64,000 nt of DNA from an uncultured Gemmatimonadales bacterium. Its GTDB lineage: Bacteria > Gemmatimonadota > Gemmatimonadetes > Longimicrobiales > RSA9. The stretch's first letter is position 1, and each line of letters begins with the position of its first letter. Below are positions 1 through 41,391 of this stretch, one piece after another. The translations under genes were made by a program, and so were the position numbers. The notes below the pieces were generated by a model. That model was not told the DNA's origin and searched no databases. It was given only the letters and a program-made list of their open reading frames with translations. The stretch lies in NCBI GenBank assembly GCA_963798085.1, contig CAWCRS010000007.1:640001-704000 (forward strand), in the 5' to 3' direction.

Positions 1-96
1 CCTCCCCAGCCCCCGCGGCCCCTGTGTGAGAGAATCCGTCCTCCGACCTCTCCTCCACTCCATGCCGCATGAAAAACCAGCGCGCTGCAAACGCCT

Positions 97-1020
97 CTAA
101 CGCCACCTTACGGTGAACCGGTGGACGGGCGAGGACTGCCGGACATCCTCGAAGGCATAGTCCAGGATGATGCGGTCACCGATGAACCCGGCGCCCAGCG
201 TAATGGGGCGCAGGTCGGAGTCCTCGACCCAGCGGTAGCCCAGACGGGCGATGAACGTGCGGCCCGGCACCGGCCAGTACGCCACTTCGGCGCCGCCGCC
301 GGCGGCATACTGGTCGCCGCGCATCCAGGAACCGGCTGCGGCCAGCGAGACATCGAGCGGCCCCAGCTGGTCCGTGCGCGTGGATGCGCCCAGTGTCACC
401 GTGGTGGGCAGGCGGGCCGTGATGTCGGGGAACTCGGGCTGGCGCCCCAGATTGCGCGCCGAGATGCCGGCCGTGATGACGCCCAGGTTGTGCGCCACAC
501 CCACGTCCGCCGCCACGGTCGCATCGTGCTCCCCGGCAATACGCTGATCGATGAGCTTGCCGCCTGCACCCAGGCGGAAGCCATGGAAAGGCCGGGCGAA
601 TGCTGCCGTCACCACCTGCTCCGACGCATCGGCCGGGCCCGACGCATCCAGCCCCGCCTCGCCGCGCGCAAACGCACCCGACGCCAGGTCCGGCGCGCTG
701 TAGTTCAGCGACTGCACGCCCAGCGCGATGCCGCCGTGCCAGAAGTCGACTGCCGCCGCCGCGCTCAGCAACGTGCTGCCGCCAAAATGCGAAAGTGAGG
801 CACTGGCGCCGCGCGCATTGTCGACCAGCCCGGGATTGTAGAAGATCGCGTCCGCATCGGTGGAGCCGATGGTGTACGCATTGCCCAGCCCCAGCGCGCG
901 CGTGCTGCCCGGCAGCTGCAGCAGCAGCGGCACTGCCCGGTCCGTCTGCGCCCGCACCCGCCCGCTCCATCCCAGCCCGCCCAGCACCAGCACCAGCAGC
1001 ACCACACGCCTGATGCCCAT
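97..1020 (-). CDS. PorV/PorQ-like outer-membrane beta-barrel protein
   Basis: Signal peptide, then RALGLGNAY...DADAIFYNPG motif of PorV/FadL-like barrels; ends HRFTVRWR; AGGAGG RBS before ATG 1020. Confidence 0.7.
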   Translation of the reverse strand: MGIRRVVLLVLVLGGLGWSGRVRAQTDRAVPLLLQLPGSTRALGLGNAYTIGSTDADAIFYNPGLVDNARGASASLSHFGGSTLLSAAAAVDFWHGGIALGVQSLNYSAPDLASGAFARGEAGLDASGPADASEQVVTAAFARPFHGFRLGAGGKLIDQRIAGEHDATVAADVGVAHNLGVITAGISARNLGRQPEFPDITARLPTTVTLGASTRTDQLGPLDVSLAAAGSWMRGDQYAAGGGAEVAYWPVPGRTFIARLGYRWVEDSDLRPITLGAGFIGDRIILDYAFEDVRQSSPVHRFTVRWR

Positions 1021-1207
1021 CACCCCTCCTGGATTGCCGTAACTAACGATATGGTAAGATTGCCGACCCGGCCCCGTCGCTTCCCGGCACAACCAACTCA
1101 GCAACGCCATCCATTCCCTTTTCCCGCCCCGGCCCGGGCCCGAGCAACGCCTTCAGACTCGTCGCGGTTCCCGGCCCCAGGCCGAGCCCCAGCCCGGGCA
1201 ACGTGAT

Positions 1208-4021
1208 TCACTTCGTACTGACCGGCATGAGCGACACCCTGACATAGCGGTCCTTCACCAGCCAGTCCCGCGCGGCGCCCGCGATGCGTTGCGGCGTCAC
1301 CGCGTCGATGAGCGCGGGCGTGTTCAGGAACGTGCCCGGGTCGGTGCCCTGCAGTGCCGAGCCCACCAGCTGGTTGAGCCAGAAGCCGTTCTCCTTCATG
1401 CTGGTCTCGAACGTGCGCCGCTGGTTCTCCTGCACCTTCTGCAGCGTGGCGGAGTCGGGACCGGCGGTCTGCAGCTTTGCGATCTCCGTAAACACGACGT
1501 TAACAAGCGAGTCGAGGCGCTCGGGCGCGGCGCCGAAATCTACGGTGAACGAGTAGTGCGCCCAGGGATCCCGGGCGCCGGAGGCCTGCACGCTCACGTC
1601 GTACGTGCCGCCCAGCTCCTCGCGCAGCACCTCGCGCAGCCGGATCTCCAGCGCATCGCCCAGGGAGCGCAGCAGCAGCAGATTTTCGCGACTGTAATCG
1701 AGCGGACCCGTGAACACGATCGCGGTGCGACTCTTCGGCTCGGCGCCGCTGTGCACCACACGCGTGACGACGCCCGTGGGCGGGCGCTCGCCATCGTCCT
1801 TCCAGCTCTCCGTGCGGCGGCTGGATGGCAGGCCGCCCAGCCAGCGCAGCACGAGTGGTCGCACCGAGTCCGGCTGGAAGCTGCCCACCAGCACGAACGT
1901 GAAATCACTCGCATCAGCGAAGCGGTCGCGATACACGCGGAAGGCGCGCGTGCGGTCGATCTCGTCCAGCAGCGCGGGCGTCACCGGCCGGGAGCGCTGG
2001 TGATGCTGCGCCAGCGTCACGGTGAGCGTGTCGCTGAACGCCACCTCGGGACTGGCCTGCTGCTGCTCGACCACGCCGCGCAGCCGCGTCATCAGCGAGC
2101 GGAACGCGACACTGTCCTCACGCGGTGCGGTCATGGTGAGCCAGACCAGCTGGAGCAGCGTCTCCAGGTCCTTCGGTGACGCGCTGCCCAGCACCCCTTC
2201 CGTCAGGTCATCGATCGCCGGTTGCACGTTCACGGCCTTGCCGGCCAGCACCTTCTGCAGCTGTGTCGCATCGAAGCTGCCCAGCCCGCTGAAGCGCACC
2301 AGCGTGGTGCTGAAGCCGCCGGACACGTAATCGGAATCGGAGACCAGCGAGAGACCGCCCGGACTGAAGCCGCGCACCAGCACTTCGTCGGCCTTGAAGT
2401 CGGTGGGTTTGAGCAGCACGCGCACGCCGTTGGACAGCCGCCACTCCGTAACACCCACGTTATCGTAGCGGCGCTCACTGGTGATGGTGCCGGGCGAGGG
2501 CGGTGCCGGCACCAGCGCCTCGACGGCCACCACGTCGTGGTAGGGCGCGATATCCTTCTGCTGCACTTTCGTGAAGGCGGCCAGCAGGTCGGCCCCCGAG
2601 GGCAGCGTCTGCCCCGCCTTCTTCGGCGCCTGCACCACTACCACGCGGTTAGCGGCCGTCATCCACACACCGGCCAGCGCATTGACGTCGGCCAGCGTGA
2701 TGGCCGGCAGGTACTCGCGCACCAGGTCGTATTCCAGAGTGATGCCGGGCACGCCTTCGCCCTCGAGGAAATGGCGGGCATACTCGTCGGCGTAGTCGCT
2801 CGATTCCGTCTTGTCGCGCTCCGCGAACGCCGACTCGTAGTAGCGCAGCATGTCGCTCTTCTCGCGCTGCAGCTCGGTGGCCGTGAAACCGTGCCGGGCG
2901 ACGCGCGCAGCTTCCGTCAGAATGGCATCGAGACCGCGCAGGATCTCACCCTCGCGCACGGCCGCGCCCACCGAATAGGCGCCGCGCGTGCGCACCAGCG
3001 CGCCTTCCGTGGAACTGGCGCCGACGAAGGGCGGATCCGCCTGCTGCGCCAGCTCGCCCAGCCGCGCGTTCAGCATGCCGTTGTAGAGCTGCGCGACCAG
3101 CGACCGGCGGTAGGCGGCAAACGTGCCCGTCGGCGCCACCGGCTGGCCGTAATAGACGTTGACGCTCGTGCCCGTGGCTTCCGGATCCGTGGCCACCACC
3201 ACCTGCGGCGAAGGGTGGTCGCTCACCGGGAAATTCGCCCTCGCCCGCTCCTTCGTCGGATTGCGCAGCGGCGTGAATTTCTGGCGTATCATCGATTCCA
3301 CGCGCGCCGCATCGAAGTCGCCCACCGCCACCACGGCCATGAGGTCGGGGCGGTACCAGTCGTTGTAGAAACGCAGCAGCACGGGCCGCTTGAAGGTCTC
3401 GATGGATTCCTTCGTGCCGATGGGCAGGCGCACCGCGTAGCGCGAGCCGCCGAACAGCACGGGGAACACCTGGTCGCGCAGGCGAGCGCCCGCACCCTGC
3501 CCCAGACGCCACTCTTCGACGACGACACCGCGCTCCTTCTCCACCTCCGTGGAATCGAAGCTCACTTCATGCGCCCAGTCCTCGAGGATCTGCACCCCCC
3601 GCTCCAGAGCCGAGCCCGTGTCCGTGGGGACCGTCAGCACGTAGACCGTCTCGTCGAAGCCCGTATAGGCGTTCAGGTCGGCGCCAAACTGCATACCAAT
3701 GGACTCGAGATAGTTGACCAGCTCCTGTTTCCTGAAGTGCGCCGTGCCGTTGAACGACATATGCTCGACCACGTGCGCCAGACCGAGCTGATCATCGTCC
3801 TCGAGTACGGAGCCCGCATTGACCACCAGCATCAGCTGGGCGCGCTTCTCCGGCTTCGTATTCGCGCGCACGAAGTATTGCAGCCCGTTGTCGAGACGAC
3901 CCGCGCGCACAAGCGGATCGAGCGGGATGGGCGCCTTCGGGTCGCGCTGCTGTCCCGCGGCGAAACTGGCGGAGGCCAGCAGGCAGAGCGGGACCAGCAC
4001 CAGGGGTCGAATTCGTCGCAT
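1208..4021 (-). CDS. M16 family zinc protease (PqqL-like, insulinase)
   Basis: Inverted zinc motif HVVEH in GLAHVVEHMSFNGT, NAYTGFDETVY, second half LSNGVRVLLKPT; signal peptide; GGAG RBS. Confidence 0.92.
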   Translation of the reverse strand: MRRIRPLVLVPLCLLASASFAAGQQRDPKAPIPLDPLVRAGRLDNGLQYFVRANTKPEKRAQLMLVVNAGSVLEDDDQLGLAHVVEHMSFNGTAHFRKQELVNYLESIGMQFGADLNAYTGFDETVYVLTVPTDTGSALERGVQILEDWAHEVSFDSTEVEKERGVVVEEWRLGQGAGARLRDQVFPVLFGGSRYAVRLPIGTKESIETFKRPVLLRFYNDWYRPDLMAVVAVGDFDAARVESMIRQKFTPLRNPTKERARANFPVSDHPSPQVVVATDPEATGTSVNVYYGQPVAPTGTFAAYRRSLVAQLYNGMLNARLGELAQQADPPFVGASSTEGALVRTRGAYSVGAAVREGEILRGLDAILTEAARVARHGFTATELQREKSDMLRYYESAFAERDKTESSDYADEYARHFLEGEGVPGITLEYDLVREYLPAITLADVNALAGVWMTAANRVVVVQAPKKAGQTLPSGADLLAAFTKVQQKDIAPYHDVVAVEALVPAPPSPGTITSERRYDNVGVTEWRLSNGVRVLLKPTDFKADEVLVRGFSPGGLSLVSDSDYVSGGFSTTLVRFSGLGSFDATQLQKVLAGKAVNVQPAIDDLTEGVLGSASPKDLETLLQLVWLTMTAPREDSVAFRSLMTRLRGVVEQQQASPEVAFSDTLTVTLAQHHQRSRPVTPALLDEIDRTRAFRVYRDRFADASDFTFVLVGSFQPDSVRPLVLRWLGGLPSSRRTESWKDDGERPPTGVVTRVVHSGAEPKSRTAIVFTGPLDYSRENLLLLRSLGDALEIRLREVLREELGGTYDVSVQASGARDPWAHYSFTVDFGAAPERLDSLVNVVFTEIAKLQTAGPDSATLQKVQENQRRTFETSMKENGFWLNQLVGSALQGTDPGTFLNTPALIDAVTPQRIAGAARDWLVKDRYVRVSLMPVSTK

Positions 4022-4314
4022 TGCTGCTCCCGTTAACGCTGGCGTGAACGCTGGAACGGGTGCCTGCGACGCGTCCGTGATGCGCCGCGTGCCGCTGCTG
4101 CCACCCGCCCGGTGCCGCTTGACAGGCCGCACCGCGCGGGGAAGTTACCGCAGCGGTTGTTGCCGGGGGAAGTCGGCCGGGGTGAAGCCTGCGCCCGGCG
4201 GGGCGTGTGTCCTTCCCATCGAGCACAGTGCCGCCGCGCAGAATCGGCGCATCCCGCCATGTCGCGAACGCTGGATGCGCAGCATCGTTCACTGCGAAGG
4301 GATTCGAGACGACA

Positions 4315-4860
4315 ATGAACGACACGGTTCCCGTCGTGGCCCTGGCGGGGCGGCGGGTGGATGCGCCCGATGCGCCTCCCCGCTTTCCGGCGACACAGGT
4401 AGCAGTCGTGCGCGATCGCCTGCGCGCCCTGTTCCAGGATATCGGAGCCGGTACGCTCGTGTGCTCGGGCGCCTGCGGTGCGGACCTCACCGCGCTCGAG
4501 GTCGCCGGCGAACTGGGTATGCACCGGCGTGTCGTGCTGCCGTTTCCACGCGACCGGTTCCGCGCCACGTCCGTCGTGGACCGCGGCGAGGCATGGGGCA
4601 ATGTGTACGATCGCGTGCTGGGCCAGCTGCCGCGCGTCGACGTCGTCGAGCTGGGCCTGGCCGAAGGCGATGCCGCATACGCGCGCGCCAACCAGGCCAT
4701 TCTCAATGAGGCTGTGCAGCTCGCCGGCAATGACTCGCCGGTGGCGGTGATTGTGTGGGAAGGCGAGCCACGCGGCCACGGCGACATGACGCAGAATTTC
4801 GCCAGCGCCGCACGCGAACGCGGCATGTCCGTGCGCGAGGTGCGTACTCGCGACGCCTGA
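4315..4860 (+). CDS. Standalone SLOG-like (nucleotide-binding fold) domain protein
   Basis: ALAGRRVDAPD..PRFP, CSGACGADL, RRVVLPF, YARANQAIL and VIVWEG segments resemble the SLOG-type domain found fused to TPR/cyclase proteins. Confidence 0.55.
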   Translation: MNDTVPVVALAGRRVDAPDAPPRFPATQVAVVRDRLRALFQDIGAGTLVCSGACGADLTALEVAGELGMHRRVVLPFPRDRFRATSVVDRGEAWGNVYDRVLGQLPRVDVVELGLAEGDAAYARANQAILNEAVQLAGNDSPVAVIVWEGEPRGHGDMTQNFASAARERGMSVREVRTRDA

Positions 4861-5023
4861 GTTCGCGCGGGCGTCCAACGGGCGAGCATCGGGCGAGCCA
4901 TCCCAACACGGCCGTCGGATCGCGCCAACGCGCTCATGTCGGGCAGCGTCGCGCCGAGACTGTCAGGAGATTCCTGACCTGGGCGACGGGCAGGCCGCGA
5001 AGTGGCGGTCCCGGGGGTGGAGC

Positions 5024-6382
5024 ATGAAACGATCACTGCGTGCGCTGCTGGCCGCACTCGGCTGCCTCATGGCGGAGGCCGCCGCGGTCCGCGCACAGGT
5101 CGTGGCCTCACACCCGCCCGAGTTCTCACACACCCTGGCAGTCGCCACCTTCGACAGCGCCTGGGATCGCATCTACCACACGCATTACGACAGCACTTTC
5201 CATGGCGTGGACTGGCATGCCGTGCGCACCGAGTTGCGCCCGCGCGCCGAACAGGCGGGATCGCTTGCCGAGCTGCGTCAGGTTCTGCGCGACATGCTGG
5301 CGAGGCTCGGCGAATCGCACTACACGCTGATTCCCGGCGAGCTCGCGGATGCCATGGAGGCGGACCGTCCGGCCAGCGAAAGCGACAACGGGTATCCCGG
5401 CGATCTCGGTCTGGAGCTGCGCCTGGTGGATGGGCGGCTCGCCGTCTTCCGCGTCGATTCGACCGGGCCCGCGGCCGTCGCGGGAGTGCACGCGGGCTGG
5501 GTCGTAGAAGCAATCGGCGAGTGGCGGCCCGCGGAAGCGCTGCAGCGCCTCGCTGGCTTGGCCGGCACGGAGCAGAGGAACGCACGCACGCAGTTCCTGT
5601 ACAGCGCGAATGCTCAGGCGGAGGGCACGTCGGGCACCCTTGCGGTGCTGCAGCTGCGCGATGGCGAGGACCGCAGCCGGTCGCTCAGGATCCCCCGCCG
5701 CCGCCGTCCGGGCGAGCCCATCCATTTTGGCAATCTGCCCACTTTCATTGCGAAACTCGACCATGTCCGACTGGCGGACGGCTCGGGTTGCGTCGGGATC
5801 ATCCGTTTCAATGTCTGGATGGTCCCCCTGATGCACGACTTCGATCAGGCGGTCGATGACGTCCGGGACTGCCGCGGCATCGTGCTCGATATCCGCGGCA
5901 ATCCAGGCGGTGTGGCTGGCATGGTGATGGGCGTGTCCGGACACTTCCTGAACCAGCCGACCTCGCTGGGCACCATGCGGCAGCGCGGCAATTCCCTCGA
6001 TTTCGTGGCCAATCCTCGCCGTGTGGACACCCACGCGCGTGCCGTGGAGCCGTTTGCGGGTCGGCTGGCCGTGCTCATCGACGGCATGAGCGTCAGCACC
6101 TCCGAGATCTTCGCCGGCGGTATGCAGGCGATCGGCCGCGCCCGCGTCTTCGGCGAAACCTCCGCCGGGCAGGCGTTGCCCGCCGGACTGGTGCGCCTGC
6201 CCGATGGCGACGTGCTCATGCACGTGCTCGCGGACTTCACGGCGGCTGGTGGCACGCGCATTGAAGGAAAGGGCGTTACTCCGGACCAGGCTGTGGTACT
6301 GCACCGCGCTGATCTCCTTGCCGGTCGTGACCCGACGCTGGAGGCGGCACTGACCTGGATCCACGCAGATTCGACGCGCTGA
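5024..6382 (+). CDS. S41 family C-terminal processing peptidase with PDZ-like domain
   Basis: LDIRGNPGG, S.STSEIFAGGMQ, GETSAG, IEGKGVTPD motifs; signal peptide. Confidence 0.9.
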   Translation: MKRSLRALLAALGCLMAEAAAVRAQVVASHPPEFSHTLAVATFDSAWDRIYHTHYDSTFHGVDWHAVRTELRPRAEQAGSLAELRQVLRDMLARLGESHYTLIPGELADAMEADRPASESDNGYPGDLGLELRLVDGRLAVFRVDSTGPAAVAGVHAGWVVEAIGEWRPAEALQRLAGLAGTEQRNARTQFLYSANAQAEGTSGTLAVLQLRDGEDRSRSLRIPRRRRPGEPIHFGNLPTFIAKLDHVRLADGSGCVGIIRFNVWMVPLMHDFDQAVDDVRDCRGIVLDIRGNPGGVAGMVMGVSGHFLNQPTSLGTMRQRGNSLDFVANPRRVDTHARAVEPFAGRLAVLIDGMSVSTSEIFAGGMQAIGRARVFGETSAGQALPAGLVRLPDGDVLMHVLADFTAAGGTRIEGKGVTPDQAVVLHRADLLAGRDPTLEAALTWIHADSTR

Positions 6383-6496
6383 GCTGCCATGCGTAGAGGC
6401 TCAATGCAGAGTATGGCGCTGCAGACCCGTCGGCCGTTACTGTGCGCTCGTGCCGGGAACCATTCCCGCTGGGGCGCCCAAACGAGGAGACGTCAC

Positions 6497-7270
6497 ATGC
6501 AACCAATGGTCGAGCGGGCGACGAAGCCCGTCCGCACTTTCGTCGTCATGGCCGCCTTCACTGCCGTGCTGCCGCTCCGGTTGCTGGCGCAGGCGCCGCT
6601 GCCTGCGGCCCGCTATCTCCTGGACCGGCACCTCGCAATGACCAACAGCCGGCTGCTCATGCAGCGCGGCGTCGTGCACACGACGGGCACCTTCAGCATG
6701 ACCTCCATGGGCACCACGGGCGACCTGGAGGTGATCCACGCGCAGCCGAACCGCACCCTGATGCGCGTGACACTGCCAGGCCTGGGCGAGATCCGCACTG
6801 GTTTCGATGGCCAGGTCGGCTGGTCCATGAACGCCATGGAAGGGCCCCGGCTCATGAGCGGCGCCGAGCTGACGCAGATCCGCGATGAAGCCGACTTCGG
6901 CAGCAACGTGCGTGATTCCTCGCTGTTCGCCACCATGGAAACGGTGGAGAAGACCGAGATGGGTGGTGTGCCGTGCTACAAGGTGCGTCTGGCCTGGAAA
7001 TCGGGACGCGAGACCTTCGACTGCTACGCCGTGGACAGCGGTCTCCTCGTGGGCAGCGTCGTGAAGACGCAGACCGCCATGGGCGCGGTGGACGCGGTGA
7101 TCCTGTTCAGCGATTATCGCGACTTCGATGGCGTGAAGATGCCCGTCACCAGCACGCAGCAGGCCTTCGGGCAGACCATGGTGATGAAAGTGAACCGCGT
7201 GACATACGAGCCTGTCGAGGCTTCCGTCTTCGACCTGCCCGCCGAGATCCGGGCGCTCGTGCACAAGTAA
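6497..7270 (+). CDS. Secreted LolA-like / outer-membrane lipoprotein-sorting fold protein
   Basis: Signal peptide; GFDGQVGW, CYKVRL, FSDYRDFDGVKMP and C-terminal FDLP pattern; AGGAG RBS. Confidence 0.55.
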   Translation: MQPMVERATKPVRTFVVMAAFTAVLPLRLLAQAPLPAARYLLDRHLAMTNSRLLMQRGVVHTTGTFSMTSMGTTGDLEVIHAQPNRTLMRVTLPGLGEIRTGFDGQVGWSMNAMEGPRLMSGAELTQIRDEADFGSNVRDSSLFATMETVEKTEMGGVPCYKVRLAWKSGRETFDCYAVDSGLLVGSVVKTQTAMGAVDAVILFSDYRDFDGVKMPVTSTQQAFGQTMVMKVNRVTYEPVEASVFDLPAEIRALVHK

Positions 7271-32420: not shown

Positions 32421-34922
32421 TTACCGGATTGTGGCGTCGCTCCGGTAGTAGTCACCCAGCAGGTGCTCCGAGAAGTACTCCATCATCATGTGGTTGAAGT
32501 AGGGCTGCATGTCGCCGTAGCCGTGGGGCTTGCCCGGCAACATCATGAAGTCGAAGCGCTTGTTGGCCTTGATGAGTTCGTTCATGAGCCGGATCGTGCC
32601 GGCCGGGTGCACGTTGTTGTCCATGTCGCCGTGCGCTAACATCAGGTTGCCCTTCAGGTTGGCGGCCAGCTCGGCGTTGGTGGGCACGTGGATCTCGAAC
32701 TTCACGTCCTGCTCCTGTTCCTGAGCCGAAGCGTCGGACTGGCCATCGTTGCCACTGCGGTCGACGACCGTTCCCTTCTTCTGCGTGGCCACGATCTTGA
32801 GCCCGTGATACTGCTCGCTCCAGTTCTGGTTGTAGACATTGTTGTCATGATTGCCCGATGATGACACGCCCACCTTGAAGAAATCGTTGTAGGGCGGCAG
32901 CATCATCGCGGCCGCGGTCATGAAGCCGCCGCCGGAGTGGCCGAAGATGCCGACCTTGTCGAGGTCGATCCAGGAAAAGCGCGCGGCCAGCTGCTCGATG
33001 CCCGCCTTCTTGTCCGCCAGACCGTAGTCGCGGAGGTTGAAGTAACCGTAGTTCTGGTAGGCGTTCGAGCGCAGCGGATTGCCGCCGCGATTGCCGATCT
33101 GGATCACGATGAAGCCGAGCGCCGCGAGACGCTGCTCCACGTTGTTGCCGCTGAACGTCGCGCTGACCTCTTCCGTCTGCGGGCCCGGATAGACGTGGGC
33201 AATGATCGGGTACTTCTTCGTGGAATCGAAGTCGAACGGCTTCCACATGTTGCCGTAAATGTCGGTAATGCCGTCCGCCGCCTTCACCACGAAGCGCTCC
33301 GGCGGCTTCCAGCCCAGCTCTTTCAGCTTGCTGACATCCATTTCAGCAAGCGGCATCACTGTGGCGCCCGTGGCATCGCGGATGACCGCCTGGTTGGGCA
33401 GGTCGGGGCGCGAGAAGTTGTCGACAATGTAGCGCTTGCTGGGCGACAGCTGCTCGTTGTGCTCGCCCTCACCCGCGTCCAGCAGGGCGAGGCCCGTGCC
33501 ATCGAGGCTCACACGGTAGAGATGGTGGTAATATGGATTCTCTCCCGGCTCACGGCCCACGCCGCGCACGTACAGCACGCCGCGTACGGAGTCGACGGCG
33601 AGGATGTTGTCCGCGCGCCATTCCCCTGAGGTGACGGGTCCCTTGAGCGTCCCGTCATTGCTGTAGAGGTAGTAGTGCCCCCAGCCACTTCGCTCCGACC
33701 ACCAGAGGAAATCACCGCCCGCCTTCACATAGCGCGCGTTCTGGCGCTCGAGGTTGGCGTTCTCCACGCTCTCGGTTATGAGCGTCTTGATCGTCTGCGA
33801 CGGCATCGCCACATCGATCATTTCCATGTTGCGTTGCAGCCGGTCGCGACGCGTCAGGCGCACATGATCCGAGCCGGTGCCGTTCCAGTGAACATCGAAG
33901 AGTCGCTGGTCCTTCCATTTCGCGACGTTGATCGGCGCGACCGCCTTCTCGCCCCGGTGATAGAAATACAGTTCCTGCTGCGGCACGTTCTCCTCGCCTG
34001 GCATGGCGTACTTGTAGGACACGAGGACGGGCCGCGGCTGCGCCAGCACATTGACGAGGTACAGCTCCTTCACCTTGCGCGTGTCCTCACGCGTCACGAC
34101 AAAGGCCTTCGAGTCAGGCGACCAGGTGACCTGCGCGCGCACACGCGGGTCGCGTGACCGCGACTGCTGCTGCTCGTCCTGCTGGTCTTCCTGCTGCTGC
34201 TGCTGCTGTTGCTGCTGCTGCAACTGGTTCGCCTGCGTCGTGTCGCGGGCGCCGAAGCTGTGATACTGCTCGCCATCCGTGCTCACCTGGATGGTATCGC
34301 CGCTCTTGACCTCGACGACGTACAGGTTGTGATCGCGGGCGAACGCAAAGGCGGTACTGTCCGGCGAGTAGTTGCGGAAGTTCACATTGCCACGTCCGCC
34401 ACCGCCGAAGCCACCGCCGCCCCGGCCGCCGCCGCGGCCGCCGAAGCCGGGAACGCTGTCACGCACCGCCCGCCCGATGTGCTTGAGAGTCTCGCCCGCC
34501 AGGCTCCATTCGTAGCGCAACGAGTCCACGTTGAAACGGATCGACTTGTGGTCGTCCGTAAACACGACGTTGGTGAACGGCAGGTTGAATGCGTCGTACG
34601 GCTTGTGGTGCAGCGTCGAGAGCTGCGTGGCGAGCTTGGCCTGATTGAAGAGCGGCTTCTTGGTCTTCGTGATGGGCACAACCAGATAGAACGTCGATCC
34701 GGTGTGATCCCGCCAGTTGTACCAGAGTGAATCGCTCTCGCCAATGAAGCGCGGCTGCACGTTGTTGCTGTAAATGATCTGCCGCACCTGTGCATCGTCG
34801 AACTTGTTGCTCAGCTCCCAGTTGGCGCGATTGACGTGCGCCTGCTGGGCACGAGCCTGCGCCACGCCAATGAGCAGCATCGCCGCGGCCGCGAACGTGG
34901 TTGTCCGCCTGGGAATGTGCAT
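32421..34922 (-). CDS. S9B dipeptidyl peptidase IV family protein, secreted
   Basis: YPGPQ, GHSGGG nucleophile, HGDMDNNVH, catalytic H; signal peptide; internal poly-Gln tract. Confidence 0.93.
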   Translation of the reverse strand: MHIPRRTTTFAAAAMLLIGVAQARAQQAHVNRANWELSNKFDDAQVRQIIYSNNVQPRFIGESDSLWYNWRDHTGSTFYLVVPITKTKKPLFNQAKLATQLSTLHHKPYDAFNLPFTNVVFTDDHKSIRFNVDSLRYEWSLAGETLKHIGRAVRDSVPGFGGRGGGRGGGGFGGGGRGNVNFRNYSPDSTAFAFARDHNLYVVEVKSGDTIQVSTDGEQYHSFGARDTTQANQLQQQQQQQQQQEDQQDEQQQSRSRDPRVRAQVTWSPDSKAFVVTREDTRKVKELYLVNVLAQPRPVLVSYKYAMPGEENVPQQELYFYHRGEKAVAPINVAKWKDQRLFDVHWNGTGSDHVRLTRRDRLQRNMEMIDVAMPSQTIKTLITESVENANLERQNARYVKAGGDFLWWSERSGWGHYYLYSNDGTLKGPVTSGEWRADNILAVDSVRGVLYVRGVGREPGENPYYHHLYRVSLDGTGLALLDAGEGEHNEQLSPSKRYIVDNFSRPDLPNQAVIRDATGATVMPLAEMDVSKLKELGWKPPERFVVKAADGITDIYGNMWKPFDFDSTKKYPIIAHVYPGPQTEEVSATFSGNNVEQRLAALGFIVIQIGNRGGNPLRSNAYQNYGYFNLRDYGLADKKAGIEQLAARFSWIDLDKVGIFGHSGGGFMTAAAMMLPPYNDFFKVGVSSSGNHDNNVYNQNWSEQYHGLKIVATQKKGTVVDRSGNDGQSDASAQEQEQDVKFEIHVPTNAELAANLKGNLMLAHGDMDNNVHPAGTIRLMNELIKANKRFDFMMLPGKPHGYGDMQPYFNHMMMEYFSEHLLGDYYRSDATIR

Positions 34923-35221
34923 GGTCGGATTCTCCGTCGGTCAGTACGCTGTGACTCGCGACGCCGTAGTCCGCGCGGACGGCTGGATCGCAAGCGCGGC
35001 GGCCGGTGTCGTGGTGGGACGGTCAGCGTGAGGAAGATAGGGGGTTGTCGCCCGCTACGGGAGTATACAGGTCGGCATGCAACGGACCCGGGACGGATGG
35101 GCCGGCGAGGCGGGGCGGAACCCGCTGCTCGGGGATGGACCGGCGCGCCCACCCTCGGCATCCGCCAGAGACCTTGCAGATTGCCAGCCAAAACGGTGAG
35201 CGGCGTCGTCGTCCACAATTC

Positions 35222-35279
35222 ATAAATCATTCATGAGCAATAACTTATATGAATCACACCCGGTGGTGCGATTCCTGCT
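35222..35279 (+). promoter_or_regulatory. IHF-like palindrome (35222-35248) plus sigma54 promoter (35264-35279)
   Basis: ataaatcatt-N7-aataacttat; TGGTGCGATTCCTGCT matches TGGCACG-N4-TTGCW spacing. Confidence 0.6.
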
Positions 35280-35347: not shown

Positions 35348-35950
35348 ATGCGCCGACGCTGGCACATACCCGGGGCCGCGGCCGTTCTGGCCATCGCGCT
35401 GTTCTGCCTGAGTTGCGACCGAAGCTCTCCCACCGACACACCGCTGAATCCGCCCGCCAGTGGAGCCCTGCTGGGGCTGCCGCGTCTGGGCGGAGCGGAT
35501 CCGACGCCGCAGCTGCCACGCGGGATGCGGTTCATCGAGGAGGAGCGGTCCGGCGGTGGCCAGGATCTGGTAACGGGCCTCTTCGGTCTGCTGGGCGGTG
35601 AGCTGCACCTGAACGGCGAATCACTGCTGGTGCCGGAGGGCGCGGTGCTGCGGTTGACGCTGTTCACGATGGAGACACCGGACACGAAGGTCATCAATGT
35701 CAACCTGAGTGCGCTGACGGGCGATCTGCTGCGCAACGTGCTGTCGCTGCTGGGCCTGTTCCAGAAGCCGGTGACGGTGGAGTTGTCGTATGCGCACGCG
35801 ACGAACGTCACGGATCCGGGCAAGCTGGTGATCGTGCGACTGCTGGACGACGGCAAGGTCGAGGTCCTGCCGACGCGTGTGGACCGGCAGCGCAAGGTAG
35901 TGTCAGCGCAGCTCGATCACTTCTCGAAGTACGCAATGGCATCCAACTGA
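35348..35950 (+). CDS. Putative lipoprotein with ZU5-like domain and terminal HFS autoproteolysis motif
   Basis: Signal ending CLSC; GGEL....SLLVPEGAV and FQKPVTVELSY are ZU5-like; ends LDHFSKYAMASN; GAGGTGAGG RBS. Confidence 0.75.
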   Translation: MRRRWHIPGAAAVLAIALFCLSCDRSSPTDTPLNPPASGALLGLPRLGGADPTPQLPRGMRFIEEERSGGGQDLVTGLFGLLGGELHLNGESLLVPEGAVLRLTLFTMETPDTKVINVNLSALTGDLLRNVLSLLGLFQKPVTVELSYAHATNVTDPGKLVIVRLLDDGKVEVLPTRVDRQRKVVSAQLDHFSKYAMASN

Positions 35951-35953
35951 CGC

Positions 35954-37609
35954 ATGGAACGCCGGCTCGAGTTGCACAGCGCGCGCGACACCGAGGAGAC
36001 ACTGGAGTCGCTGGTCGAGCAGGGCCGGGCCGCCGAACGCGCGGGCGCATGGGATGAAGCGCTGCGCGCGTTCGACGGCGCGTTCCGCAAGCTGCGCCGC
36101 GAGCACGGAGCGGAGCGCGCGGCGGAGCTGCTGCGCTGGATCGGGACGGTGTTCCGCAATCGCGGCGAGCTGGAGAATGCGCACGAGTTGTACGAAGCGA
36201 GTCTGGCCGTTGCCGAAGCCGCAGCGCTGCCCTACCACATCGCCTCCGCGCTCAACTGTCTGGCCATCATCGCGCAGTTTCGCGCCAACGTGGATGATGC
36301 GGAGCAGCTCTACCTGCGCGCGAGTGAACTGGCGCAGCAGGCCGGTGACGACCGGCTGGCGGCCATGATCGATCAGAACGTAGGAACGCTGGCTAACACG
36401 AAAGGCAGCTACGACGCGGCGCTCGGTCACTATCGCTCGGCGCTCCGCCGTTTCCGCCGTCTGCAGGATGAAGTCGCCGCGGCGTGGGTGCTCAACAACA
36501 TGGGCATGGCGCACGTCGACCTGGGGCAGTGGAACAACGCGGTGCGCGCGTTCGACGAAGCCTTCGAGCTGGCGGATCGCCAGCGCGACACGCACCTGAT
36601 CGGCACCATCGAGCTGAACCGCGCCGAGCTGCATCTCAAGCGCGGTGTTGTGGGCGATGCGCGCGACTGCTGCGACCGCGCGTTCGAGGTGTTCAGCCGG
36701 GTGGGCTCGCAGAGCGGTCTGGGCGAGGCCTACAAGTTCTACGGTGTACTCTACCGCGAGATGGGCAAGCCGGGTCTGGCCACCACGCATCTGCGCAACG
36801 CCATCGAAACGGCAGTGGGCTGTGAGGACCGGCTGCTGGAAGCGGAAGCGCGAAGCGAGGCTGCGCTGCTGCATCTCGATAACGGCGAGAATCGCACCGC
36901 GCTCGAGTGCATGAACCGCGCGCACCGGCTGTTCACGGACCTGCGCGCGCGTGCCGAGCTGCTGGATGTGGATTCCCGTCTGGACCGGCTGGAGGAGACG
37001 TTCCTGAAGGTGGTGAAGGCCTGGGGCGAGTCGATCGAGTCCAAGGATCGGTACACCGCGGGTCACTGCGAGCGTGTGGCTGACTACGCCTGTCTGCTGG
37101 CGGAAGCACTGGGCTTCCAGGGTCGCGATCTTACGTGGATGCGCATGGGCGGGTTCCTGCACGATGTGGGCAAGATCGTGGTGCCGCCCGCGATCCTGAA
37201 CAAACCGGGAAAACTGAGTCCCGAGGAATTCGACGTGATGAAGACACACACCACGGCTGGTGACGAGCTGACTACGCCGCTCAACTTTCCGTGGGACATC
37301 CGGCCGATCGTGCGCAACCACCACGAACGCTGGGACGGCACAGGCTATCCCGACGGCCTCGAGGGAGAGGACATCCCGCTGGTGGCGCGCATTCTGTGCG
37401 TCGCGGATGTCTACGACGCGCTCACGACGGCGCGCAGCTACCGGCCGGCGCTGCCCGCGCTCGAGGCCCTGCGCATCATGGAGCGCGAGTCCGGCAGCAA
37501 TCTGGATCCGAAGATCTTTCCCATCTTCCGCCAGCTGATTCTGGAGCATGCCGCCCAGCGCGGCGGCATGGCACGGCTGCGCACCCCGGGCGCGTTCGCC
37601 GCCGCCTAG
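35954..37609 (+). CDS. TPR-repeat + HD-GYP phosphodiesterase
   Basis: N-terminal TPR array; YTAGHCERV, LHDVGK, HHERWDGTGYP, ADVYDAL, RSYR; no signal or TM segment. Confidence 0.92.
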   Translation: MERRLELHSARDTEETLESLVEQGRAAERAGAWDEALRAFDGAFRKLRREHGAERAAELLRWIGTVFRNRGELENAHELYEASLAVAEAAALPYHIASALNCLAIIAQFRANVDDAEQLYLRASELAQQAGDDRLAAMIDQNVGTLANTKGSYDAALGHYRSALRRFRRLQDEVAAAWVLNNMGMAHVDLGQWNNAVRAFDEAFELADRQRDTHLIGTIELNRAELHLKRGVVGDARDCCDRAFEVFSRVGSQSGLGEAYKFYGVLYREMGKPGLATTHLRNAIETAVGCEDRLLEAEARSEAALLHLDNGENRTALECMNRAHRLFTDLRARAELLDVDSRLDRLEETFLKVVKAWGESIESKDRYTAGHCERVADYACLLAEALGFQGRDLTWMRMGGFLHDVGKIVVPPAILNKPGKLSPEEFDVMKTHTTAGDELTTPLNFPWDIRPIVRNHHERWDGTGYPDGLEGEDIPLVARILCVADVYDALTTARSYRPALPALEALRIMERESGSNLDPKIFPIFRQLILEHAAQRGGMARLRTPGAFAAA

Positions 37610-37639: not shown

Positions 37640-37903
37640 ATGGCGCCGTCCGACCGGATCCGACTCCTGTGGTTGCGCGGATCGCTGTTCGCCACCGCGC
37701 TCCTGTCTGCGCTCGTGCTGCAGGGTTGCGGCCGGCGCGGGCCGGCAGACTCGCCACTGTCGCCTCCGGTGGCGAGCGCCGATGCCGCGGCATCCCGTGA
37801 GTCAGGCGACACACCCGCGTCCGGTCGCTCGCAGGGATTCACCTTCGTCGAGGAATACCGCGCGCCGGGCTCCGCCTCGGTCAGCACGATGGCCTCCAAC
37901 TGA
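37640..37903 (+). CDS. Small lipoprotein, ZU5-less paralog of 35348-35950, ending MASN
   Basis: Lipobox LQGC; shares P.D.PL.PP(.)AS, G..F.EE.R..G and MASN-stop with the upstream gene. Confidence 0.75.
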   Translation: MAPSDRIRLLWLRGSLFATALLSALVLQGCGRRGPADSPLSPPVASADAAASRESGDTPASGRSQGFTFVEEYRAPGSASVSTMASN

Positions 37904-37909
37904 TCCGGG

Positions 37910-39601
37910 TCAACGGCTGGCGGTGCGCGGCTGGGCGTCGGCCAGCCACCAGCTTCCCACATTGATGAACGCGCCACGCACATCCATAACGGCCCCGCGC
38001 AGTCGCGCGCGTGCGGCGTAGAGATTCGGGACGTACCAGAGGAAGGTCCAGGGCTGCTCGTCCCGGATGATGCGCTGCACCCGGTGCCAGCGCGGGATCG
38101 CGTCGCGGCGATCCGTGAGCGTGGCCAGCGTGTCGAGCGTGGCATCCACGGTGGCGTTGTGAAACGAGGCGAGCTGGTATTCGCCGTTGATGGCGGCGGA
38201 ATGGAAGGTGTCGCGCAGGTTGATGCGGAAATCCGCGTCCCACGCCATGAGCACGGCGTCGAAGTCGCGGGCCGGGCTCGAGATCTGGCCGATGAGCGTG
38301 GTGAACTCGACGGGTCGCACGCTCATGCTGACACCCACGTTCGCAAGATCCGCCTGGATCATTTCCGCGACGTCACGGGTGAAGGCGTTGCTCGTGGGGA
38401 TCTTCAGCTCGATGCGGAAGGGCCGGCCGTCCGGCAGCCGCAGCTTGCCGGAGGCGTCGGGGCGCAGACCCGCTTCGGCGAAAAGAGCGCGCGCGGCCGC
38501 CGTGTCGTACGGCAGCGGGCGCACGGAATCGGGGAACGCCCAGTGGAACGGGCCGATCGGACCGGAGGCCAGCTCGCCGTGGCCGCCGCGCAGCACCTGC
38601 AGGATCTGCGGACGGTTGATCGACAGGGTGAGCGCACGCCGCACCCGCGCATCATCCAGAGGTCGGCGCTTTCCGTTCCAGCCGATGAAGTGGTACTGCG
38701 TCGCCGCTTTCACGATGGGCACGACGCCGGCCTCGCCCCGGAGTCGCGTCAGATCCTCCGCGCGCGGCGCGAGAATCAGGTCCGCGTTGCCGGTGAGCAG
38801 CTCGGTCACCTGCGCGGTGTTCTCGCTGATGACTCGCCACACCACGCGGTCCAGGTGCGGCCGGCCGCCCAGACCCGCCGGAAAGTCGGGATTGGCGTCG
38901 AACACCCAGCGATCGCCGGCGCGATACTCCGCGAAGCGGAACGGACCGTTGCCGATGGGCGCGTGATTGAATCCGGCCTGACGCATGCGCGCGGGCGGAA
39001 TCGAATCCAGCGCGTGCTTCGGCATGATGGGCAGGAACGCCCATGTCAGCAGCGGATCGATGAAGCGGTCGAGTGTGAAGCGGACGGTGAAGGAATCCAC
39101 CACGGATACGGACTTCCAGTGCATGAGATCATCGGCATTGGGAAAGCCGCTGGCCGGATCGCGCGCCCGGTCGAACGTGAATGCCACGTCCCATGCGGTC
39201 GTCTTCGGTCCATCGCTCCAGCGCACGTCGTCGCGCATGTGGAAGACCAGCGCGGTGTCGCCCTGCCAGTCCCAGCTGCGCGCCAGCGCGGGCTGAAAGC
39301 CGCCCTCCACATCCAGGGATACGAGTGGCAGGAAGAGCGCGTGCAGCAGGAGGTCCTGCGTGTAGGACTCGGACGCAATGAACGCATTCATGGGTCCGAC
39401 GTCGTTGGGGCCGGCGATCACCAGCGTACCACCATCCCGCGGCGCGGCATCAGCGGCGGACGCGACCGGCAGCGGCGCGTTGTCCCGGCACGCTGTGCCC
39501 AGCGCGGCGGTCAGTGCGAGGAGCAGCCGGCCGAGCGTAAGAGCCGGGTGCATGCGACCGGCGGAAGCTGCGTCCGCCGCACGAAATCGGAATCCGCCCA
39601 T
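37910..39601 (-). CDS. Peptide ABC transporter substrate-binding protein (SBP family 5, OppA/DppA-like); alternative start 39553
   Basis: Lipoprotein signal LGTAC, PALARSW, WSDG..TAWDVAFT, PIGNGPF, RVRRAL...INR. Confidence 0.9.
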   Translation of the reverse strand: MGGFRFRAADAASAGRMHPALTLGRLLLALTAALGTACRDNAPLPVASAADAAPRDGGTLVIAGPNDVGPMNAFIASESYTQDLLLHALFLPLVSLDVEGGFQPALARSWDWQGDTALVFHMRDDVRWSDGPKTTAWDVAFTFDRARDPASGFPNADDLMHWKSVSVVDSFTVRFTLDRFIDPLLTWAFLPIMPKHALDSIPPARMRQAGFNHAPIGNGPFRFAEYRAGDRWVFDANPDFPAGLGGRPHLDRVVWRVISENTAQVTELLTGNADLILAPRAEDLTRLRGEAGVVPIVKAATQYHFIGWNGKRRPLDDARVRRALTLSINRPQILQVLRGGHGELASGPIGPFHWAFPDSVRPLPYDTAAARALFAEAGLRPDASGKLRLPDGRPFRIELKIPTSNAFTRDVAEMIQADLANVGVSMSVRPVEFTTLIGQISSPARDFDAVLMAWDADFRINLRDTFHSAAINGEYQLASFHNATVDATLDTLATLTDRRDAIPRWHRVQRIIRDEQPWTFLWYVPNLYAARARLRGAVMDVRGAFINVGSWWLADAQPRTASR

Positions 39602-39843
39602 GGTTTCGACCTTCGGATGCGCGACGAGAGCGGCTGCGCGGGGAGCAGCCGGCGTTCGGGGAGTGAGCCGTCTCTTCAGTCTCGGCAGTCCCGGCCGGCT
39701 GGCGCAGTGGAAGAAGCGCCCCGGGGAAGGGGCCGGAGCTCCGGGCACGCGGTTGCATTGCAGGCCTGGCCGGCAACACCGAAGTTGCGGTGACGTGCGA
39801 CTGCGGGACCTCCGGTCCCGATCCCTGCAACCGACTCCGGATC

Positions 39844-41391
39844 ATGAGGACCTGCGCGGGTCTCGGCGCCCTTCTGCTGGGCAGTGCAGTCGCGTGTGCC
39901 AGGCCGCAGCCGGTATCGCTGGTATCGGTGGAACGCGTCATTACGCACGACAACCGGGCGGCCGCGGGCCGCCTGCGCAATGACGAGTTAGAGATCCACC
40001 TCGAGCTGCGCGCCGGCGAATGGTACCCGGATTCGCCATCGGGGCCGGCTGGCGTCGTGCAGACCTTCGCGCTCGAAGGCGGGCCGCCGCTGATTCCCGG
40101 ACCGCTCATCCGCGTGCGCACCGGCACGACCATCCACGCGACCGTGCACAACCCGCTCCCCGATTCGACGCTCGTGGTGCACGGCCTGCACACCCGGCCC
40201 GGTTCTGGCACCGATTCCCTCGTGGTCCGTCCCGGCGAGACGCGGGACGTGCGGTTCCCCGCGGGCCAGCCGGGCACCCACTTCTACTGGGGCTCGACCT
40301 CGCACACGGACATGGAGTCCCGACTCGGCAGCGACAGCCAGCTGGCCGGCGCGTTCATCATCGACCCCGCAGACGGGCCGGCGCACGAAGACCGCGTGTT
40401 CGTCATCGGGCAACTGGTTCGATCCCCCGGATTCCGCAGGCCCGCCGCCCGTCGTCGAGCGCGATGTGATGGTGATCAACGGACGGTCGTGGCCATGGAC
40501 CGAGCGCTTCGACCTGCTGCAGGGCGATACCATCTACTGGCGCTGGCTGAACCCCACGCCCAACGCACACCCAATGCACCTGCACGGTTTCTTCTACGAC
40601 GTCACCAGCCGCGGCAGCTGGGCGGCAGACACGGTGTTAGAGAGGGGGCCGCGCCAGGTGGTCACGGAAACCATGCTGCCGGGTTCGACGTTCGCCATGC
40701 GCTGGGTCGCGGAAAGGCCGGGCAACTGGCTGTTCCACTGCCACTTTGCGTTCCACGTGTCGCATTTCCTCTCGTTCCGCAAGATTCCGGACCCCGAGGA
40801 TGCCGATCCGCCGGGCGTGTTGGAGCATTCGGCCAGCAGCATGCGCGGGTTGATCCTGGGCTTGCACGTGCGGGAGCGGAACGACCGTCCGGGCGAGGCT
40901 GTCAGGGGGACCGAAAGCGCGGCCGCGAGTGCGGCGGACACGGCGACGCCGCCGCGGCGGGTCCGCCTGCTGGTGGACGCGAAGAATCCGGGACCCCGCG
41001 AACAGTTCGGTTATGTCGTGCAGAACGGGGCGGAACCGGCGCGTGACTCCGTCCTCGCGCTTCACGCCGCCACGCGCCGGCACGTTCATCTACCATTCGC
41101 ACTCGAACGAAGACGCGCGTGTTCATCGCACTGGCGCGGCGGGCGCCACCGGCAGGGAAATGGGTGGGACGTACCGCCGCGGACTACCAGCTGGCGGAGT
41201 GGCGCGCGGTGGCGAAGGATGGCGCCGATCTGCCCGCCGCGCAGCAGGTGAGCGGGCCGGCCTGGATCGGCATGGGACCGGGCGAGACCGCCGACTTTGC
41301 GTTCACACCCACCATCGCCGGCGACCTGACGATGCAGGTCGTGACGCAGGTCGAGGGGTGGGTGCTCGATCTGCCGCTACACGTGCGGTAG
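39844..41391 (+). pseudogene. Multicopper oxidase, frameshifted and apparently internally deleted
   Basis: HGLH, HPMHLHG, WLFHCHFAFH, GTFIYHSH and TADFAFTP occur in different frames; the second half is compressed. Confidence 0.7.

Follow-up and report, generated by a model that had tools for sequence, protein, structure and literature searches.

A two-gene unit of Gemmatimonadota lies within the window analyzed here (the whole 64,000-nucleotide stretch of DNA) and pairs the gene of a small ZU5-like lipoprotein with that of a TPR/HD-GYP protein. We propose, with a probability of roughly 0.5 for the circuit as a whole, that the lipoprotein is a self-processing peptide precursor, that the peptide acts on the TPR protein as a cytoplasmic receptor, and that the receptor in turn acts on c-di-GMP. 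The first step is the firmest: the fold, the motif, and the published chemistry of homologous domains all point to self-cleavage of the lipoprotein at HF|S, which we consider probable. The broadest form of the proposal is a phylum-wide system of diderm bacteria whose precursor acts as its own protease and stores its signal as a precut last strand of 7 to 8 residues; once the body unfolds or is proteolysed, the peptide would be imported and switch a cognate cytoplasmic TPR receptor controlling either c-di-GMP or a sigma-54 activator. This we advance tentatively, the balance tilting slightly against it.

The lipoprotein, its motif, and its fold

The lipoprotein gene and its upstream region contain the following features:

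35175..35184, + strand: TGCA-N3-TGC element, lying some 85 nt 5′ of the promoter-like site, putative activator site, invariant in 4/4 aligned upstream regions
35264..35279, + strand: sigma-54-type −24/−12 promoter-like site, 7/10 consensus positions, with GG and TGC kept in 4/4 aligned upstream regions
35348..35950, + strand: ZU5/GAIN(MAIN)-fold lipoprotein of 200 aa, candidate self-processing peptide precursor (open reading frame, homologues, structure model, and profile)
35348..35416, + strand: lipoprotein-type signal peptide ending at the presumed lipobox Cys23 (35414–35416), recognized by inspection of the sequence
35918..35926, + strand: HFS motif, residues 191–193, with the predicted cut between Phe192 and Ser193 (conservation; cut by analogy with MAIN and PIDD/Nup98)
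35924..35947, + strand: octapeptide SKYAMASN, predicted to be released, monoisotopic mass 870.39 Da (sequence and tail conservation)

The sequence-only reading had described a ZU5-like domain with an HFS site eight residues from the C-terminus, and the position of the site is confirmed: CACTTCTCG, encoding HFS, occupies 35918–35926 and is followed by KYAMASN and the stop codon, and the C-terminal end of the 200-residue protein is QLDHFSKYAMASN. Residues H191, F192, S193, and Y195 are invariant in 27/27 first homologues, so the motif is not a chance occurrence. Cys23, which we take by its pattern to be the lipobox cysteine, is nearly invariant in both homologue alignments; the sequence-only reading mentions neither this lipoprotein signal nor the neighboring genes. 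A profile search returned 2623 representatives at E ≤ 0.001, 150 of which were listed, and the matches listed in two homologue searches were pooled into a set of 172 proteins. Among these listed matches, the tripeptide is HFS in 157, HLS in 4, HFT in 3, and something else in 8, and the nucleophile position holds Ser in 167, Thr in 3, and other residues in 2 (Ser or Thr in 170/172), which bears out the conservation of the serine. In the same listed matches, the tail from the Ser to the end of the protein measures 8 residues in 140 proteins, 7 in 12, and 9 in 9, that is, 7 to 9 residues in 161/172 and 10 to 21 in 11/172. The His is replaced in some copies paired with a TPR gene (GF|S, SL|S, and TL|S); Nup98 and CARD8 are described as tolerating loss of the His at the cut site (PMC3210808).

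Family matches were found in 113/301 genomes of the phylum Gemmatimonadota, a tally that takes in three unpublished genomes. Named records carrying the family belong mostly to Longimicrobiales and other Gemmatimonadota, and the Atlas clusters are likewise mostly from Gemmatimonadota; NCBIfam has no family name for the lipoprotein. One locus (L009) comes from a record titled Gammaproteobacteria and closely resembles the Longimicrobiales loci L004 and L006, possibly reflecting mis-binning. In another (L051, 8925–9578, − strand), the tail is seemingly duplicated in tandem (HFSRYVIAFSDYVIAW), resembling the duplicated propeptides that have reportedly been described for RRNPP systems.

The ZU5-like fold is clear by structure and weak by Pfam (E 0.18, below the cut-off). 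The structure model (pLDDT 83) finds its best Foldseek matches in ankyrin ZU5 domains (E 4e-5), and VIA-align superposes it on ankyrin-B ZU5 (Z 10.6, rmsd 2.2, 113 aligned), the CELSR1 GAIN domain (Z 9.6, rmsd 3.4, 129 aligned), and UNC5b (Z 8.3), with weaker matches to the CARD8/NLRP1 FIIND and Nup98. The ZU5 domains of ankyrin and UNC5b are not known to cleave. In an Atlas cluster, ZU5 is annotated on 50% of members at 0.96. The model places HFS in the turn joining strands 184–189 and 194–199, just ahead of the last strand, and the lipoprotein profile matches a YfkN-like domain in locus L012 (probability 96.4, E 1.2e-9) over an alignment that spans HFSKYA. By modeled fold and motif together, we place the lipoprotein in the ZU5/GAIN/MAIN autoproteolytic superfamily. 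The L012 match lies in a large S-layer protein, and that locus encodes a 2273-aa nucleotidase/phosphoesterase S-layer protein (16–6837, + strand) with an HFS-type MAIN-like domain close to either terminus.

Ser-dependent cleavage at HF|S has been published for bacterial domains of the ZU5/GAIN fold, named MAIN; their cleavage products remain associated, and of the five other MAIN domains that the preprint names, four came out as cleavage products on purification (bioRxiv 10.64898/2026.05.12.724683). The cleaved strand of GAIN domains is tightly bound as well, and the BAI3 GAIN domain is uncleaved (PMC3321182). In the lipoprotein, nothing follows the last strand, so cleavage could free only the octapeptide, and its release would need the body to be unfolded or proteolysed; our analysis found no release trigger for the bound strand. 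The sequence-only reading had proposed a peptide dispenser whose cut strand is freed by force or proteolysis, in the manner of the GAIN tethered agonist. Its force-dependent part fits poorly, because the lipid anchor sits on the N-terminal fragment and the eight-residue product is untethered, with no anchor to pull on; for the dispenser itself, there are now a candidate receptor and a candidate importer, together with a complex prediction that weakly suggests binding (score 0.48; see below).

MAIN-type domains of large S-layer proteins (L011 and L012) also read HFSKYAL and run on into anchors; because the first five tail residues thus form a structural strand common to anchored MAIN-type domains, much of the tail conservation is fold-driven. 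A solo paralogue in the genome of the window (G000:C1:223544–224476; L001, 9626–10477) ends in the identical SKYAMASN, encoded with synonymous differences only relative to the window lipoprotein. The nearest copies to its body have 7-residue, aromatic-ended tails (21/21 top BLAST matches), and the window lipoprotein ranks 222 of 259 against that body. A distant body with an identical octapeptide is the outcome to be expected if a shared receptor selects for the tail; the mismatch between tail and body was seen in a single case, which sits on a long branch. The solo paralogue sits after an S-adenosylhomocysteine hydrolase gene, with no TPR gene adjoining.

Upstream of the family genes, sigma-54 sites scoring at least 9/10 against the −24/−12 consensus, on which the window's own site scores 7, occurred in 13/56 regions versus 0.53 expected. 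Sigma-54 activator genes were present in 11/58 wide loci; of 11 activators scanned, 4 matched a receiver domain (E < 0.001) and the other 7 did not. The AT-rich tract 35213–35255 has a possible IHF site, but it matched the consensus poorly, and we make no claim for it.

The TPR/HD-GYP partner and the gene neighborhood

Downstream and flanking features are as follows:

32421..34922, − strand: S9/DPP-IV-like peptidase, divergent, probably not a core part (syntenic only in L111 and L116)
35954..37609, + strand: protein of 551 aa with TPRs (about residues 14–345) and HD-GYP, candidate cytoplasmic receptor-phosphodiesterase, starting 3 nt after the lipoprotein stop
37640..37903, + strand: 87-aa lipoprotein-like open reading frame ending in STMASN, by alignment an in-frame internal-deletion paralogue without ZU5 body or HFS, probably a relic
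37910..39748, − strand: oligopeptide-binding protein of the SBP_bac_5 family, in convergent orientation, candidate component for uptake (profile match and neighborhood counts)

No signal peptide was seen on the 551-aa protein, and NCBIfam gave no family above the cut-off for the whole of it. A TPR-family gene lies within 300 nt of the family gene in 74/83 loci, with 6 lacking one and 3 lying too close to the end of their contig; the loci, selected by best score, include some near-duplicates or loci from the same genome, and 8 receptors were used to build the TPR profile. One of the 6 (L092) holds a receptor fragment cut by the contig. In the genome scan, the TPR/HD-GYP gene follows in 9/9 small-lipoprotein loci, the remaining 2/11 being large MAIN-type proteins, and a TPR gene is present in 30/30 short loci (one from an unpublished genome), whereas the TPR profile has just 8 matches in this 6.2 Mb genome. 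The lipoprotein stop and the TPR start overlap or nearly so in L002–L004 and L006–L008; divergent and convergent pairs occur too, and TPR-only partners elsewhere measure about 290 to 350 aa. Family copies without an adjoining TPR gene occur in L001, L106, L122, and L126, and L129 holds a tandem set of five such copies. The L129 array (3–4915) consists of lipoproteins with differing tails; its contig differs in composition, and the array lies beside cytochrome-c-like genes, with no TPR gene within the 10 kb examined.

The tree of ZU5 bodies, with the tail removed, agrees with the tree of the adjoining TPRs (Mantel rho 0.61, 0/2000 permutations, 49 pairs), an agreement inflated by kinship, since kin are not independent, and one that also follows from plain operon co-inheritance. 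A second class of pairs (HL|SGYAIAN-type, mostly with a divergent TPR-only partner) clusters across genomes on both trees and stands beside a first-class pair in L002 and L008. At 18 alignment columns the TPRs differ from one tail class to the other, differences that are inseparable from phylogeny.

The receptor model (pLDDT 91) shows a long TPR superhelix. VIA-align ranks LGN/Pins closest (LGN: Z 30.6, rmsd 5.2, 316 aligned), followed by APPBP2 and Rap (Rap phi105 with peptide: Z 26.5, rmsd 4.1, 319 aligned), with NprR, AimR, and PlcR lower. RRNPP receptors were absent among the 54 PDB sequence matches of the TPR part and among the Foldseek matches listed, an absence that carries no weight because VIA-align lists them, below LGN. 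Asn-type ladders in TPR repeats line peptide grooves, and here a ladder with a 40-residue period (R61, N101, Q141/N142, and N182) is invariant in 35/35 orthologues, with N222 kept in 33. The HD, HHE.WDG.GYP, and downstream Asp/Arg motifs are intact in 33 to 35 of the 35 TPR/HD-GYP orthologues.

Complex prediction of TPR(14–345) with lipoprotein residues 171–200 scored 0.48 against 0.02 for the best of 3 controls and weakly suggests binding, a score to which likeness to solved TPR–peptide complexes may contribute. Runs agreed in at least 87% of contacts, with a partner pLDDT of 51 to 54. The mark used for such predictions is reached by 116/157 solved complexes and 2/215 mismatches; at 0.60 or under, it is reached by only 18/157 solved complexes, plus both mismatches.

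An importer is suggested by gene linkage. This genome holds 3 SBP_bac_5 copies, one of which converges on the lipoprotein/TPR unit. Of 38 genomes picked blind, without sight of the flanks, 10 have an SBP_bac_5 gene no more than 10 kb from a family gene, versus about 1.1 expected, and 28/38 have no SBP at that distance. SBP_bac_5 is present in 17/58 loci of at least 9 kb, and an SBP gene lies near the pair in 4/5 genomes (as the sole copy in two) of a non-blind sample from which no rate is taken. Counts of OppD/F were dropped, because their profile also catches ABC ATPases in general, with 31 matches in this genome. In L010 (1970–8989) and L128 (1813–7961), the ZU5/TPR-HD-GYP pair sits inside an oligopeptide ABC cluster, directly after the SBP and permease genes, with the ATPase gene after it in L010. 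In L066, L074, L076, and L081, multiple ZU5 copies and multiple TPR genes cluster with an SBP gene and a sigma-54 activator without recognizable receiver.

Two further neighbors were considered and set aside. The S9/DPP-IV-like peptidase, which has a glutamine-rich insert, invited a parallel with DPP9–NLRP1 as a core part; its orthologues occur at this place only in the two closest relatives, L111 and L116. The 87-aa frame at 37640–37903 aligns with the first ~77 lipoprotein codons and then with the last four codons and the stop, and its product would present the final four residues of the tail with no cleavage domain attached. As a conserved second precursor it is rejected for now: a search among 17 candidates of 47 to 153 aa gave 1 match, itself, and it is absent at the same place in the syntenic L111 and L116. 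By eye, a multicopper-oxidase-like reading at 39790–41391 (+ strand) is seemingly split over several frames.

The candidate circuit and competing explanations

In the circuit that we propose, the sigma-54-type promoter would drive the lipoprotein and TPR-HD-GYP genes together, and the lipoprotein would be exported and lipid-anchored at Cys23. It would cut itself at HF|S through an N–O acyl shift, SKYAMASN remaining bound as the last β-strand until the body unfolds or is proteolysed. The freed peptide may then be carried into the cytoplasm by an oligopeptide ABC transporter, as the gene linkage suggests, and there bind the Asn-lined groove of its cognate TPR domain, switching the fused HD-GYP phosphodiesterase and altering c-di-GMP, a step that the complex prediction weakly favors. 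Where the partner is TPR-only, it may work in trans, targeting sigma-54 activators in the way that Rap proteins target response regulators.

Three other explanations draw on parts of the same evidence. The unit might be a monitor of the envelope or of export within one cell, in which a failure of export, lipidation, or folding, or an attack by periplasmic proteases, lets the C-terminal strand, cut or still part of the cytoplasmic precursor, reach the co-translated TPR protein, so that the cell senses itself and does not signal to others. The lipid anchor, which holds the precursor on the producing cell, the overlapping or near-overlapping stop and start codons in L002–L004 and L006–L008, and the sigma-54-type promoters all suit such a monitor, and the 30-mer that scored, weakly, in the complex prediction had its tail still attached. 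Binding of an uncut precursor, however, would not require the nucleophile conserved in 170/172 of the matches listed, the linked oligopeptide-binding genes point to a peptide taken up from outside the cytoplasm, and divergent and convergent pairs exist; we regard self-sensing of this kind as rather unlikely. Distinctly unlikely, in our view, is an account in which the cut is real and the strand permanently bound, the lipoprotein serving as a surface-binding or scaffold protein in the manner of ankyrin ZU5, merely co-regulated with the phosphodiesterase and yielding no mobile peptide. The tight binding of cleaved strands, the sharing of tail residues 1–5 with MAIN domains, the solo copies and TPR-less arrays, and the restriction of SBP linkage to a minority of loci speak for it, but it leaves unexplained why each lipoprotein class has one cognate TPR class, why the stop comes straight after the strand in 161/172 of the matches listed, why the distant L001 body carries the identical octapeptide, and why the ladder of the TPR groove is invariant.

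The cleavage itself may be doubted, HFS being a structural turn that is never cut, or the acyl-shift ester may ligate the N-terminal fragment to an envelope nucleophile, leaving the octapeptide as waste. The nearest solved folds do include uncleaved domains, and inteins and Hedgehog are described as using the same acyl-shift chemistry (PMC3210808). Yet the Ser is replaced almost solely by Thr (167 Ser and 3 Thr of the 172 among the matches listed), the pattern of a nucleophile, 4/5 further MAIN domains were purified as cleavage products (bioRxiv 10.64898/2026.05.12.724683), and for ligation there is no evidence of an acceptor; both variants together are very unlikely.

Should the peptide circuit prove real, it would join the chemistry of the GAIN tethered agonist to a logic like that of RRNPP, and each lineage would have its own peptide dialect (SKYAMASN, SRYAVAY, and SGYAIAN). 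A bacterial GAIN-like domain would gain a signaling role for its C-terminal fragment, a defined short peptide would be tied to c-di-GMP turnover, and peptide signaling through cytoplasmic receptors would reach beyond Gram-positive bacteria into an abundant, little-studied phylum. We found no description of the ZU5 lipoprotein and TPR/HD-GYP pair in the openly readable literature, to which the 15,000-protein supplement of the MAIN preprint might add the family. The main text of that preprint makes no mention of lipoprotein, TPR, ZU5, or Gemmatimonad, and the preprint says that the C-terminal fragment has no known signaling role, a question that it lists as open (bioRxiv 10.64898/2026.05.12.724683).

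Relationship to known systems

Adhesion GPCRs, the comparison drawn by the sequence-only reading, appear to be a more distant precedent than microbial MAIN domains are for the protein and RRNPP systems for the circuit. In adhesion GPCRs, the cleaved last strand of the GAIN domain stays bound and is the proposed agonist once exposed, but there a 7TM receptor carries the agonist on a tether and force exposes it (PMC3321182), whereas the octapeptide would be untethered and its candidate receptor is separate and cytoplasmic. MAIN domains, such as that of Bacillus subtilis YfkN, share with the lipoprotein the fold class, the HFS at the last β-turn, and export; they belong to large proteins (mean 158 kDa) with cargo before the domain and a wall anchor after it, from which the cargo is released (bioRxiv 10.64898/2026.05.12.724683). 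The lipoprotein differs from this architecture in being a single domain without cargo, with an N-terminal lipid anchor and 7 to 9 residues after the site. The autopeptidases of the ZU5 superfamily (PIDD, Nup98, the NLRP1/CARD8 FIIND, UNC5CL, and the ZU5 of polymorphic toxins) share the ZU5 fold, HF|S, the buried Phe, and the Ser nucleophile, and their cuts, as described, split large domains (UPA-DD/CARD, Nup96, and an RHS toxin) (PMC3210808, PMC7883297, PMC3482391); the lipoprotein, unlike them, stands alone, and its product would be a bare strand.

RRNPP(A) systems (Rap-Phr, NprR-NprX, PlcR-PapR, and AimR-AimP) resemble the unit in that the gene of an exported precursor adjoins that of a cytoplasmic TPR receptor, the signal is the last 4 to 10 residues, and there is linkage to oligopeptide permease (PMC10075063). 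The receptor model aligns with Rap, NprR, and AimR at Z 21 to 26.5. Measured against the five published criteria (PMC10075063), the unit has TPRs on the receptor and adjacent genes (a 3-nt gap; within 300 nt in 74/83 loci). As to Sec export of the propeptide, inspection suggests a lipoprotein-type signal with the conserved Cys23. The unit departs from the criteria in the precursor, a folded protein of 200 aa and candidate self-processor where a propeptide of 10 to 100 aa cut by proteases is expected, and in the receptor, which has 551 aa with an HD-GYP output where 250 to 500 aa are expected, a range that the TPR-only partners elsewhere would fit. Because precursor size and receptor length, two of the five, thus fall outside the published definition, we do not file the unit as a member even though it would work like one, and because LGN/Pins and APPBP2 outscore Rap, we make no claim of descent. 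Maturation by separate peptidases, as described for RRNPP (PMC10075063), also contrasts with the self-cleavage motif, and the adjoining S9 peptidase is syntenic only in L111 and L116. RRNPP systems are found in Bacillota, as against Gemmatimonadota for the lipoprotein/TPR unit.

On the output side, HD-GYP phosphodiesterases (PA4781, the tri-nuclear 4mcw enzyme, and DvhD) align with the receptor model at Z 23 to 25, and the HD/GYP motifs with their metal ligands are intact, which makes the protein, by sequence, a candidate c-di-GMP phosphodiesterase. It differs from these compared HD-GYP proteins in its sensor, a long TPR superhelix, and in the pairing of its gene with a lipoprotein gene.
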